From the NCBI GenBank assembly GCA_016185845.1, contig JACPMV010000022.1, positions 1-44,937 on the forward strand: a stretch of 44,937 nucleotides of DNA, in the 5' to 3' direction. This DNA is from Candidatus Woesearchaeota archaeon. GTDB lineage: Archaea > Nanobdellota > Nanobdellia > Woesearchaeales > GW2011-AR4. Shown piece by piece: positions 10,178-37,928 of the stretch (position 1 is its first letter; every line of letters begins with the position of its first letter). Position numbers and translations under genes: made by a program. Under the pieces are notes generated by a model, which worked only from the letters and a program-made list of their open reading frames with translations, was not told the DNA's origin and searched no databases.

Positions 10178-10249
10178 GGGCCCATGGTCTAGTGGCTAGG
10201 ATACAACCTTCACAGGGTTGGGGTGGGAGTTCAATTCTCTCTGGGCCCA
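10178..10249 (+). tRNA. tRNA-Val(CAC), intronless, CCA not encoded
   Basis: Acceptor GGGCCCA/TGGGCCC-A, anticodon arm CAACC-TTCACAG-GGTTG, T arm GGGAG-TTCAATT-CTCTC. Confidence 0.93.
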
Positions 10250-20125: not shown

Positions 20126-20833
20126 TCAGCGCCCTCCCAGATAGATGTGCTGTATTTTCTTTGTCTTCAGCAATGACTTATCTCCTCTCAGTGCCACCTT
20201 TCCGTCCTCCAGGACAAATATCTTGCCTGCTATCTGTGTTGCCTGCTTGGCATTCTGCTCTACTATCATTATAGCAACTCCTTCTTCATTTATTTCCTGT
20301 ATTTTCCTGAACAGTTCCTTCATTATTTTCGGCGCCAGCCCAAGCGACGGCTCGTCCAGCAGCAATAACTGGGGGTCCTGCATCAAAGCTCTTCCTATTG
20401 CGAGCATCTGCTGCTGGCCTCCTGATAAATTAAAAGCATAATCCTTTAGTTTTTTCCTCAAATCAGGAAAATGTTTTTCCAAAACTTCTTCCATCATTTT
20501 TTCTACCAAATCTTTTTCTTTTGTCAGAAAAGCGCCCATTTCAAGATTTTCCCTCACAGTTAAAGTCTGGAAAACCTGCCTTCCCTGGGGAACATAGCTT
20601 ATTCCCAGTTCTATTAATTCATGCGTCGGAATTTTTGTTATATCCTTGTTTTTGAACATGATTTTTCCCTTATAAACGTCAACCAGGTTGAAAATGCTTT
20701 TCAGCAATGTTGATTTTCCTGCCCCATTCGGCCCTATAATAACAGCAATATCCTTTGGCTTTACATTCAGGCTTATTCCGAACAAAATCTGCATCTTTCC
20801 GTATCCTGAATCTAGGTTTTTTATTTGTAACAT
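20126..20833 (-). CDS. livF: Branched-chain amino acid ABC ATPase
   Basis: GPNGAGKST, LSGGQQQML, LDEPSLGLAP, VEQNA. Confidence 0.92.
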   Translation of the reverse strand: MLQIKNLDSGYGKMQILFGISLNVKPKDIAVIIGPNGAGKSTLLKSIFNLVDVYKGKIMFKNKDITKIPTHELIELGISYVPQGRQVFQTLTVRENLEMGAFLTKEKDLVEKMMEEVLEKHFPDLRKKLKDYAFNLSGGQQQMLAIGRALMQDPQLLLLDEPSLGLAPKIMKELFRKIQEINEEGVAIMIVEQNAKQATQIAGKIFVLEDGKVALRGDKSLLKTKKIQHIYLGGR

Positions 20834-36223: not shown

Positions 36224-36422
36224 TGGGGCAGAGGAGATTTGAACTCCTGACACTACGGTATCAGACATTTCATTGCCTTTCGGCTCAAAATACCGACTTC
36301 AGCCGTCTAAGCCAACTTTTCAGTTGTATGCTCTTTCCTGATGGAAAGCTCGGCTAAGCCTGCTTTAATACCCAGGCTGAGCTACTGTTCTGGTTCTACA
36401 AACAAAAGCTTATAGAATCCCC
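36224..36422 (-). tRNA. tRNA-Phe(GAA) with four introns (4/5, 20/21, 27/28, 37/38)
   Basis: Exons 36422-36419, 36387-36371, 36334-36328, 36306-36297 and 36259-36224 join to GGGGCAG TA GCTC AGCCTGGGA GAGC A TACGG CTGAAGA CCGTA GTGTC AGGAG TTCAAAT CTCCT CTGCCCC A, a fully paired 74-nt cloverleaf. Confidence 0.88.
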
Positions 36423-36439
36423 ATAATATACTCAGCCAA

Positions 36440-37228
36440 CTATGCGAGAATTAATGTTTTATTTATATGGTTTTCTGTTATAATTTTTAATCTTGCTCCC
36501 TTAGCAGAATCTTCTATACCTACAAAATCCCTGAATTTGATTAAAGAATCTTTATTCTTGATTTTTAGTCTTACAGGTCTTATCCTTATACCATCACGTC
36601 TAAGATTAAAGGTATTATCTAAAAATGGGTTTGTTGTCTTAATTTCAAAATATTCATTCAAATAAGATTTTATTTGAGTAAAAAAATTTAGTCCGTCTTC
36701 AATTAAATCCTCGGATTTATACATTTGGATTTCAATACACTTACTATACAAATCAATACTACCCTCACAACTAAATAATCTATTAACAAATCTGGCAAAT
36801 AAATATTTGTCCTTTAAAATCCATTCAGGAATAGAAAACTTAGTCAATACCTTAGCCCCTGCAGGTGCTCCAAGCAATCTCAAAATTCTTATGAGGGGTC
36901 TACAATTGACGCCATAATTCATTGTACCATAATTATTAGTAGTGCATTTTCTTATTTTTCCTCCAATCTTGAAAATATTGTAAACCTCCGCGCCAAATCT
37001 ATTAAGTTCTTCAGTAGATTTTGATGTATAATCCAACCTCATTCTAAGTGGGGTGTCTTGCACATGCCCATCCCCCATCAAATCTGCGATTATTCCAGCT
37101 AAATTTGGCGAAGCTACTAGTGGAAACCAGTAAGAATACCTCGAAAGTGCTTTTACTCCATGCCATCTAGAGTTATAAGTATTAACAACATCTTCAAAAT
37201 TTAACAAAATATTTTTATCAAATTCCAT
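36440..37228 (-). CDS. Free-standing two-motif LAGLIDADG endonuclease-like protein
   Basis: LAGIIADLMGDG and FVNRLFSCEGSI motifs, IPEWI linker; AGGTGA RBS. Confidence 0.85.
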   Translation of the reverse strand: MEFDKNILLNFEDVVNTYNSRWHGVKALSRYSYWFPLVASPNLAGIIADLMGDGHVQDTPLRMRLDYTSKSTEELNRFGAEVYNIFKIGGKIRKCTTNNYGTMNYGVNCRPLIRILRLLGAPAGAKVLTKFSIPEWILKDKYLFARFVNRLFSCEGSIDLYSKCIEIQMYKSEDLIEDGLNFFTQIKSYLNEYFEIKTTNPFLDNTFNLRRDGIRIRPVRLKIKNKDSLIKFRDFVGIEDSAKGARLKIITENHINKTLILA

Positions 37229-37505: not shown

Positions 37506-37928
37506 TTATATCTCCCCATCATCAGAATCAGCATCTTCAATATTCTCTTCTTCTACATTTATATCTTCGCCTGAATTATCCTTATCATATTTCTCCAACG
37601 GCATGTTTGTCCTTATGACAGAATCGCTGCCTGCTTCGGCTTTTCCGACAACTTCCATTTTTCCCATCCTTCCGGTTGTCAGCTGCATCTCTCCCTGCCA
37701 TTCGTTGACATAGCCGTTGGTTAAATGGATTTTGTCTCCTGCCTTCACTTTGTCAATGTCCTCATTCCACAAGGTTAGCTTTATGTCGCCTGTCTCGTCT
37801 TTTGCGATTGCTGTTGAAACTCTTCCGGGCTTTCCGAACTTGTTGAATTCCCTGACATCGCCTATGTCTACAACATCTACAATAACATCAACACTGCCCT
37901 GCTTTGGCTTTAAGTCTTTTATCTGCAT
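37506..37928 (-). CDS. ssb: Single-OB-fold ssDNA-binding protein with acidic tail
   Basis: IKDLKP, DETGDIKLTLWN, NGYVNEWQGEMQL. Confidence 0.88.
   Translation of the reverse strand: MQIKDLKPKQGSVDVIVDVVDIGDVREFNKFGKPGRVSTAIAKDETGDIKLTLWNEDIDKVKAGDKIHLTNGYVNEWQGEMQLTTGRMGKMEVVGKAEAGSDSVIRTNMPLEKYDKDNSGEDINVEEENIEDADSDDGEI

Follow-up and report, generated by a model that had tools for sequence, protein, structure and literature searches.

The stretch analysed here (the window) is the 44,937-nt contig JACPMV010000022.1 of a Candidatus Woesearchaeota archaeon (assembly GCA_016185845.1). The element in question is a gene for tRNA-Phe(GAA) on its minus strand at 36224–36422, which appears to be interrupted by four introns, one of them in the acceptor stem. 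All positions are window coordinates; G000 is the host genome, a metagenome bin of 60 contigs that is 81% complete, other G numbers and L numbers are the genomes and loci of its relatives, and C numbers are contigs. Joining the five exons in Table 1 (4 + 17 + 7 + 10 + 36 nt) and removing the introns (31, 36, 21 and 37 nt) gives a 74-nt tRNA-Phe(GAA). The coordinates, lengths and motif strings of the original prediction, which was made from the sequence alone, were all correct on recheck, and the exons are indeed as short as 4, 7 and 10 nt. T runs of a similar kind to the one behind this gene are also found behind the tRNA-Phe genes of relatives.

Table 1. Features of the tRNA-Phe(GAA) locus and the nearby ligase gene, in order of transcription for the tRNA gene
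Feature	Start	End	Strand	Remarks
TATA-like A/T-rich box (ATATAAATAAAA), candidate promoter	36457	36468	-	~20–30 nt upstream of leader motif; putative role
5′ leader	36423	36437	-	GGCTGAG at 36437–36431; AT at 36424–36423 in intron-1 central helix
Exon 1 (GGGG)	36419	36422	-	tRNA positions 1–4
Intron 1, 31 nt	36388	36418	-	site 4/5 (acceptor stem); inner hairpin 10 bp; central helix 3/4
Exon 2, 17 nt	36371	36387	-	positions 5–20: rest of acceptor 5′ strand, D-stem 5′ strand, most of D loop
Intron 2, 36 nt	36335	36370	-	site 20/21 (D loop); central helix CCTG/CAGG, 4/4
Exon 3, 7 nt	36328	36334	-	positions 21–27
Intron 3, 21 nt	36307	36327	-	site 27/28 (anticodon stem); central helix GAGC/GCTT, 4/4, one G-U
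Exon 4, 10 nt	36297	36306	-	positions 28–37, including anticodon GAA
Intron 4, 37 nt	36260	36296	-	canonical site 37/38; central helix CTGA/TCTG, 3/4; U33 opposite pyrimidine
Exon 5, 36 nt	36224	36259	-	positions 38–73: anticodon-stem 3′ strand, variable loop, T arm, acceptor 3′ strand
Six-T run, archaeal-type terminator signal	36217	36222	-	one base past A73
RtcB tRNA-splicing ligase gene	38814	40040	+	PF01139, E = 1.4e-142; 2.4 kb from tRNA gene

The spliced product was recognised by ARAGORN as tRNA-Phe(gaa), with all stems paired and A73 as the discriminator. As had been claimed, removal of the four introns leaves a cloverleaf in which every stem pair is Watson–Crick (21/21). The ARAGORN drawing contains the anticodon GAA, A73 and G37, together with U8, A14, G18-G19, U33, G53-T54-T55-C56 and C61; apart from the anticodon, we take these to be conserved or identity positions of tRNA-Phe. 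The CCA end is not encoded in the gene. The spliced sequence is ∼80% identical to the uninterrupted tRNA-Phe of G060, a genome from another family.

A cloverleaf with four gaps might result from over-fitting or from an assembly artefact. Over-fitting does occur when gaps are free and scores are low, and a tRNA-Thr candidate at C6 with 7–8 gaps and a score of 62 was set aside as probably being such a case. For the tRNA-Phe gene this explanation was tested and is not supported. The locus gave a spliced-alignment score of 120; among 250 random 260-nt windows of G000 the mean was 10.8 (sd 7.1) and the highest value 35. Furthermore, its 17-nt and 36-nt exons are typical of a D arm and of a T arm plus acceptor strand, and the gene recurs in genomes that were assembled independently. 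We therefore regard an artefact as barely conceivable.

The unspliced locus was not called by ARAGORN, with or without the intron option, nor by the Rfam tRNA model at its gathering threshold; a permissive threshold gave 13.7 bits (E = 4.2). The suggestion that standard scans could miss this gene thus holds for ARAGORN and Rfam, but tRNAscan-SE 2.0 may find it, since that program strips non-canonical introns iteratively. No other tRNA-Phe was found by Rfam or ARAGORN in the 81%-complete assembly, and BLAST of G000 with the spliced product gave no second 3′ half. Windowed spliced alignment across G000 with an independent query, the uninterrupted G060 tRNA-Phe, returned one Phe locus only, which was this one.

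The exon–intron borders were examined for bulge-helix-bulge (BHB) motifs, using a geometry in which four exon bases are followed by two bulged exon bases and the cut, and the partner strand consists of the four intron bases preceding the last two. The core strings are ATGG[GG|A]..CCAG[AA|C], CCTG[GG|T]..CAGG[AA|A], GAGC[AT|A]..GCTT[AG|A] and CTGA[AG|T]..TCTG[AT|A] for introns 1 to 4, respectively, with 3-nt bulges in the canonical register and the central-helix pairs counted in Table 1. In introns 1 and 4 the central helix has a further helix on either side, intron 4 sitting on the anticodon stem. For intron 2 the sole candidate outer helix is the D stem, which is reached only past a 2-nt gap, and intron 3 contains a 5-bp hairpin capped by a GAAA loop. 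For introns 1, 2 and 4, only one placement of the borders yields the spliced product. Intron 3 can slide by +1 or +2 nt leaving the product unchanged; only at 27/28 is there a 4-bp helix with the adjoining 5-bp hairpin. Intron 4 had been singled out as the weakest motif, with a mismatch in the central helix, and it does have only 3/4 pairs there and is on paper the poorest motif in the thermodynamic model described below.

Two of the introns resemble the exons around them. The 37/38 intron starts with CGGTA, which repeats the 5′ strand of the anticodon stem and can pair with TACCG, made up of the final intron base and the 3′ exon. G028 and G007 have an A-T stem pair and CGATA in the intron, so that the mimicry follows the exon; this may be a competing helix or a relic of how the intron arose. 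In intron 2, CAGGCT is complementary to the exon sequence AGCCTG, and a 28-nt form of the intron adds a near-copy of exon GCCTG; intron 2 looks like a hairpin made from a duplicated D-loop segment. In the minimum free energy (MFE) fold of the leaderless precursor, the exon pairs with this internal copy.

The locus was then compared with its relatives. The genus comprises 43 genomes, 25 of which have a recognisable tRNA-Phe locus. Three loci were excluded from all counts: L008 in G005, for 10 masked N in the D-arm intron; L012 in G024, for a contig end; and L103 in G062, for its 5′ end. The 22 that remain, together with the gene of G037 from another family of the same order, make up 23 complete orthologues. 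When spliced, all 23 give a 74-nt tRNA-Phe(GAA) with 21/21 stem pairs that ARAGORN calls as tRNA-Phe(gaa). Across these orthologues each intron is precisely present or absent, and genes that lack a given intron have the exon bases on either side of it joined exactly at the predicted point.

The number of introns per gene ranges from two to five: two in 4 orthologues, three in 9, four in 7 (including G000) and five in 3. The five-intron genes (G034, G025 and G032) all lack the canonical 37/38 intron. Eight sites are used, with introns at 4/5 in 10 orthologues, 14/15 in 1, 18/19 in 5, 20/21 in 15, 27/28 in 12, 37/38 in 18, 46/47 in 6 and 59/60 in 11. The central helices at the 18/19 sites have 4/4 pairs, and those at 46/47 and 59/60 mostly do. 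The 20/21 intron has length forms ranging from 23 to 36 nt. The central-helix mismatch of intron 4 is kept in all 14 distinct sequences, and in G036 and G037 the intron-1 partner is CCAT or CTAT, which gives 4/4 central pairs.

For introns 1, 3 and 4 the proposed pairing was compared with controls in which it was slid. Intron 1 was paired at 95.0% (slid controls 32.5–53.1%), intron 3 at 96.3% (11.1–55.6%), with one compensatory change, and intron 4 at 89.9% (21.6–47.1%); the relatives are kin and not independent samples, and these figures are descriptive. The four-intron reading is supported by these controls and by the precise presence or absence of the introns in the 23 orthologues. Introns 3 and 4 separate the two bases of the 27-43 pair, which is T-A in G000 and G008 and C-G elsewhere. 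Since this pair covaries, the border of exon 3 is fixed.

The same comparison bears on whether the locus is a decaying pseudogene with insertions, the working tRNA-Phe lying in the unassembled 19% of the genome. The bin is 81% complete in 60 contigs, and G060 does have an uninterrupted tRNA-Phe, as such an explanation would allow. A pseudogene, however, would not be expected to hold 21/21 Watson–Crick pairs after removal of exactly four inserts, nor to show compensatory stem changes and precise presence or absence of the inserts over 23 genomes. No intron-free copy was seen among the loci found, every insert carries an endonuclease motif, and the gene is flanked by a promoter-like box and a T-run terminator. 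We consider decay improbable to a high degree.

The acceptor-stem intron is associated with a distinct 5′ leader. The leader sequence GGCTGAG is complementary to CTCAGCC in the D arm. Each of the 10 genes with a 4/5 intron has a GGYTGRG motif 13–15 nt upstream of G1, and none of the 13 genes lacking this intron has one. In the 7 aligned loci the pairing of the leader:D-arm helix is complete (100%), the C/T and A/G variants being accommodated by G-U pairs. The central helix of intron 1 is itself made by the last two leader bases with G1-G2, and so depends on the leader. Folding of the precursor plus leader gave z = −3.94, and both the leader:D-arm helix, which encloses the intron-1 hairpin, and the intron-3 motif were present in the MFE and centroid structures.

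The position of a conserved A/T box also differs between the two groups of genes. The box starts at −29 to −33 in 12/13 genes without a 4/5 intron, and at −41 to −44 in 7/10 genes with one; the remaining three 4/5-intron genes, including that of G000, have a ATATAAATA-like box even further upstream. The distance from the box, as a putative promoter, to G1 thus rises by ∼12 nt with the 4/5 intron. Such spacing is what would be expected if transcripts were almost leaderless in genes without the intron and had a leader of ∼13–15 nt in genes with it, given the start sites predicted here. The constant accompaniment of an acceptor-stem intron by a D-arm-complementary leader motif and a shifted candidate promoter box is new here. 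RNase P RNA was found in 37/43 genus genomes (30 relatives above the family cut-off, mostly full-length), and the leader would therefore be removable after splicing.

Alternatively, the tRNA body could be real and the 4/5 insert not an EndA intron, leaving three introns and a 5′ end that comes from a trans piece or forms an aberrant acceptor stem. The GGGG 31 nt upstream would then be fortuitous, and three introns would not exceed what is known. Exon 1 is just 4 nt long, and GGGG by itself says little; two leader bases are needed for the central helix of intron 1, which contains an A-G mismatch; and in G062 the 3′ end of the insert is kept although the upstream sequence has no leader, GGGG or hairpin, which means that a 5′ part can be missing. 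On the other hand, ten orthologues from two families share AT-GGGG, a 10-bp hairpin and CCAG, CCAT or CTAT with a 3-nt bulge in register, with full 4/4 central pairing in G036 and G037. In the 13 other orthologues GGGG directly abuts the next exon base at this point, and there is perfect agreement between the insert and both the leader motif and the promoter shift. If the insert were retained, the 7 nt preceding the D arm would be unable to pair with the 3′ acceptor strand. We therefore judge this alternative to be very unlikely, if slightly less so than a pseudogene, and continue to read the 4/5 insert as the first of four introns.

The G062 gene (L103, G062:C11, ∼640–860) has introns at 20/21, 27/28, 37/38 and 46/47 plus the 3′ end of a 4/5 intron. 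The stop codon of an open reading frame (ORF) lies 24 nt upstream. The missing 5′ piece was not found elsewhere in this 78%-complete genome, where two pattern searches matched apparent coding sequence without a hairpin. The gene may be split, decayed or affected by an assembly gap.

Short matches to GGGG plus the intron-1 region on other contigs of the relatives were also inspected, in case they marked intron 1 in other tRNA genes. Nine places were examined, and only the one in G037 was a tRNA-Phe homologue. In six of the nine, TTATGGGGATT lay in ordinary sequence with no tRNA-like gene or intron-1 hairpin visible by eye, and in two (L114 and L116) the search motif was absent from the stretch examined.

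The host genome encodes both an EndA endonuclease and an RtcB-type ligase, as BHB introns would need. The nearest RtcB proteins in public records bear the labels Nanoarchaeota, Nanoarchaeia or Woesearchaeota, with Methanosarcinales as an automatic label on some, and the host is placed in this DPANN group accordingly. Searching G000 with PF01974 gave two EndA genes, at C16:229–831 (minus strand) and C44:90–692 (plus strand), both of which encode 200 aa and lie no more than a few hundred bases from a contig end. Reading the two matches as an alpha/beta pair was ruled out: they are full-length copies with 92% identity, and the 33 other genus genomes with a match carry a single copy each. The second copy comes either from mixed strains in the bin or from a duplication in the recent past. 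Both domains (PF01974 and PF02778) are in one 200-aa chain, and no diverged EndA paralogue was found in G000 at E ≤ 10. There are neither the separate subunits of an (alpha-beta)2 enzyme nor the ∼390-aa three-unit fusion of an epsilon2 enzyme, only a single subunit type of ∼200 aa. As far as sequence can tell, the EndA is a single two-domain alpha-type subunit without a beta paralogue, presumably acting as a homotetramer. The original prediction had suggested a relaxed-specificity EndA; by its subunit type the enzyme is alpha, not one of the classical relaxed-specificity (alpha-beta)2 or epsilon2 types. The closest solved chains are the catalytic subunit of Nanoarchaeum equitans (3IEY_A, E = 1e-33) and the alpha4 enzyme of M. 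jannaschii (1A79, 1.9e-29). A Tyr, a His and a Lys of the G000 protein align with those of 1A79; we take these to be the catalytic residues of EndA.

The motifs of the first three introns compete for the D arm: the leader helix uses C11–C17, the central helix of intron 2 uses C16–G18, and that of intron 3 uses the 3′ strand of the D stem. To assess the order of splicing, a partition function was computed for all 15 intermediates still carrying an intron. In this model, forming the intron-1 core cost 1.7 kcal/mol in every state and the intron-3 core 0.1–3.1 kcal/mol. The intron-2 core cost 9.0 kcal/mol in the primary transcript and 5.0 kcal/mol once intron 1 was gone. The model weakly suggests an order in which introns 1 and 3 are removed first and intron 2 after intron 1. 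Ordered splicing had been proposed from the shared exon bases; the overlap of the motifs makes it plausible, and the thermodynamic model gives a weak hint as to the order.

We propose the following pathway. Transcription would begin ∼15 nt upstream of G1, and the leader GGCTGAG would pair with CTCAGCC of the D arm. This helix, and the leader AT with G1-G2, would provide the outer and central helices that offer intron 1 to EndA, while introns 2, 3 and 4 would form local motifs of a 4-bp helix and two 3-nt bulges. The single alpha-type EndA would cleave two bases into each bulge, and RtcB would ligate the exon ends. Intron 1 would be removed ahead of 5′ trimming by RNase P, because its motif needs the leader. 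Splicing would be stepwise or dynamic, because the motifs of introns 1, 2 and 3 share D-arm bases and cannot coexist. CCA would be added post-transcriptionally, and the gene would be part of a clade-wide proliferation and turnover of tRNA introns.

Several points weigh against this reading, in addition to the kinship of the relatives mentioned above. Covariation is weak, the changes being mostly one-sided and G-U compatible, and covariation tests for introns 1, 3 and 4 were not separated from shuffles. The central helices of intron 1 (A-G) and intron 4 contain a mismatch. Introns 2 and 3 have 0 bp of outer helix abutting the central helix; they are relaxed (HBh′-like) and do not have the strict hBHBh′ form. 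Core costs in the model were 5–12 kcal/mol for intron 2 and 9–13 kcal/mol for intron 4 throughout. Aligned over residues 53–200, the EndA and the strict M. jannaschii alpha4 enzyme (1A79) hardly differ in length, and published specificity loops were not recognised in it by pairwise alignment to 1A79. The RNase P RNA of G000 is present only as a 95-nt fragment (27 bits, C17:1–95, plus strand) cut by the contig start. A second Phe gene could sit in the unassembled part of the bin, and expression, the splice junctions and the 5′ end are all predictions.

Taking both sides together, we assign a probability of roughly 0.88 to the reading that the host, a DPANN archaeon with a small genome, has here a functional tRNA-Phe(GAA) gene, probably its only one, with four protein-spliced BHB introns at 4/5, 20/21, 27/28 and 37/38.

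Other tRNA genes of the host genome are also disrupted. The census of G000 was a rough one made with cross-family queries, and only tRNA-Met and tRNA-Asp were curated. An initiator-like tRNA-Met(CAT) gene (G000:C1:20564–20732, plus strand) has four BHB introns, at ∼30/31, 37/38, 43/44 and 59/60 (20595–20620, 20629–20653, 20660–20681 and 20698–20718), with 3, 3, 3 and 4 of 4 central pairs, respectively. The spliced form is a perfect cloverleaf; it carries the pair A1-U72, and its anticodon stem contains three G-C pairs. A tRNA-Asp(GTC) gene (G000:C29:9495–9654, minus strand) showed four apparent gaps in the rough census, which became three introns after curation, all with 4/4 central pairs. One of them, of 36 nt and in the D loop, has a CCTG/CAGG helix, as in intron 2 of tRNA-Phe; the others measure 16 nt (near 37/38) and 31 nt (at 59/60). 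Several more tRNA genes of G000 show two gaps in the uncurated census. A tRNA-Val(CAC) gene in the window (10178–10249, plus strand; Rfam 58.5 bits) is intron-free, and disruption is therefore not universal among the tRNA genes of G000. BLAST of the Phe introns against G000 gave chance-level matches only (11–21 nt, E ≥ 0.26), so that no intron spread was seen.

The Rfam tRNA model found 13 tRNAs in G000. In G036, G021, G051 and G043, which are 93–100% complete, it found 11, 16, 14 and 20 at E ≤ 0.001, and in G060 it found 38. Most tRNA genes in several lineages of this order thus escape the standard model.

Passages on tRNA introns in two publications agree with the earlier statement that up to three introns are described for archaeal tRNA genes: these ‘can contain up to three’ introns in the tRNAscan-SE 2.0 paper (PMC8450103) and have ‘a maximum of three introns’ in Fujishima and Kanai 2014 (PMC4033280). 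Full-text literature searches, with subscription journals and supplements outside their scope, gave no report of a tRNA gene with more than three. The four introns of the tRNA-Phe gene had been called possibly exceptional; they do exceed the published maximum, but three congeners reach five and the tRNA-Met of G000 also has four. Acceptor-stem introns as such are already known, according to a 2025 paper (PMC12397907). What we describe would be a known mechanism taken beyond its documented limit, in a new lineage and with a leader-dependent acceptor-stem intron.

The closest parallel is with the multi-intron tRNA genes of the Thermoproteales (Pyrobaculum and Thermofilum; Sugahara et al. 2008, as cited in PMC4033280 and PMC8450103). 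As far as the citing papers describe them, these too have short BHB introns, placed canonically or non-canonically and found among other places in the D arm, T loop, variable loop and acceptor stem, very short exons, removal by EndA and joining by RtcB, and perhaps one intron leaving before the next motif forms. In contrast, the published maximum there is three introns, as against four here and five in three congeners, and they belong to TACK rather than DPANN. The EndA of the Thermoproteales is an (alpha-beta)2 enzyme with a Crenarchaea-specific loop, whereas a single alpha-type is predicted here. Of intron transposition, as outlined for that group in PMC4033280, no sign was seen in G000, where BLAST did not reveal the same intron in other tRNA genes.

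Similarities also exist with the split tRNAs of Nanoarchaeum equitans and the tri-split tRNAs of Caldivirga (Randau et al. 2005 and Fujishima et al. 2009, through citing papers). There, according to those accounts, sequence outside the mature tRNA builds a helix that presents a BHB-like motif, as the 5′ leader would do here for the 4/5 intron. However, all of the pieces of the present gene are in cis, and the leader would pair with the D arm of its own molecule.

The nuclear tRNA genes of the red alga Cyanidioschyzon merolae are highly disrupted, and according to PMC3728597 a single gene can have as many as three ectopic BHB introns, located in the D arm, at 37/38 and in the T loop. The order of splicing was shown there by reverse transcription PCR of intermediates and rationalised by motif free energies. 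The free-energy reasoning used above follows the same logic, here with the model alone. C. merolae differs in being a eukaryote whose tRNA genes hold no more than three introns each and are in addition permuted.

Two points made by Kaneta et al. 2018 (PMC5829648) concern DPANN genomes directly: alpha4-type EndA is linked there to tRNA gene disruption, and incomplete tRNA sets are taken to hint at undetected disrupted genes. The present clade fits both. The same text ties broad specificity to an ‘L3’ insertion, and none was seen here relative to M. jannaschii in the pairwise alignment. A 2026 preprint that used tRNAscan-SE gives 26–54 tRNAs per complete Nanobdellota genome and suggests split tRNAs as a possible explanation for the gaps. 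Multi-intron genes would be a concrete alternative to that reading of the missing tRNAs.

A broader interpretation, which we hold at slightly better than even odds, is that the whole clade (the genus and at least one sister family) has undergone runaway gain and loss of tRNA introns with a plain alpha-type EndA and an acceptor-stem intron that recruits the leader. Promoter, leader and intron would evolve as a unit, and splicing would precede RNase P. If so, the accepted link between a heteromeric or loop-bearing EndA and heavy tRNA disruption would be broken, and the ‘missing’ tRNAs of many DPANN genomes would be multi-intron genes rather than the result of loss or of split genes. The gene itself, with exons of 4, 7 and 10 nt, would show the extent to which an essential single-copy RNA gene can be fragmented. 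Congeners that differ by single, precise intron gains or losses provide a natural series for studying the birth and loss of BHB introns. This series would allow the substrate needs of an alpha-type EndA to be tested, and the leader-dependent intron gives a testable order of processing.

Upstream of the tRNA gene, a 262-aa ORF with a weak LAGLIDADG-like match (36440–37228, minus strand; also L002:749–1888, plus strand) ends 3 nt before the tRNA leader. It is located between an SSB-like gene (37506–37928) and the tRNA-Phe. Many relatives instead have an acidic-tailed ORF that ends directly upstream of the tRNA promoter box. Another LAGLIDADG-like ORF lies behind the EndA copy on C44, and these ORFs may be mobile insertions.

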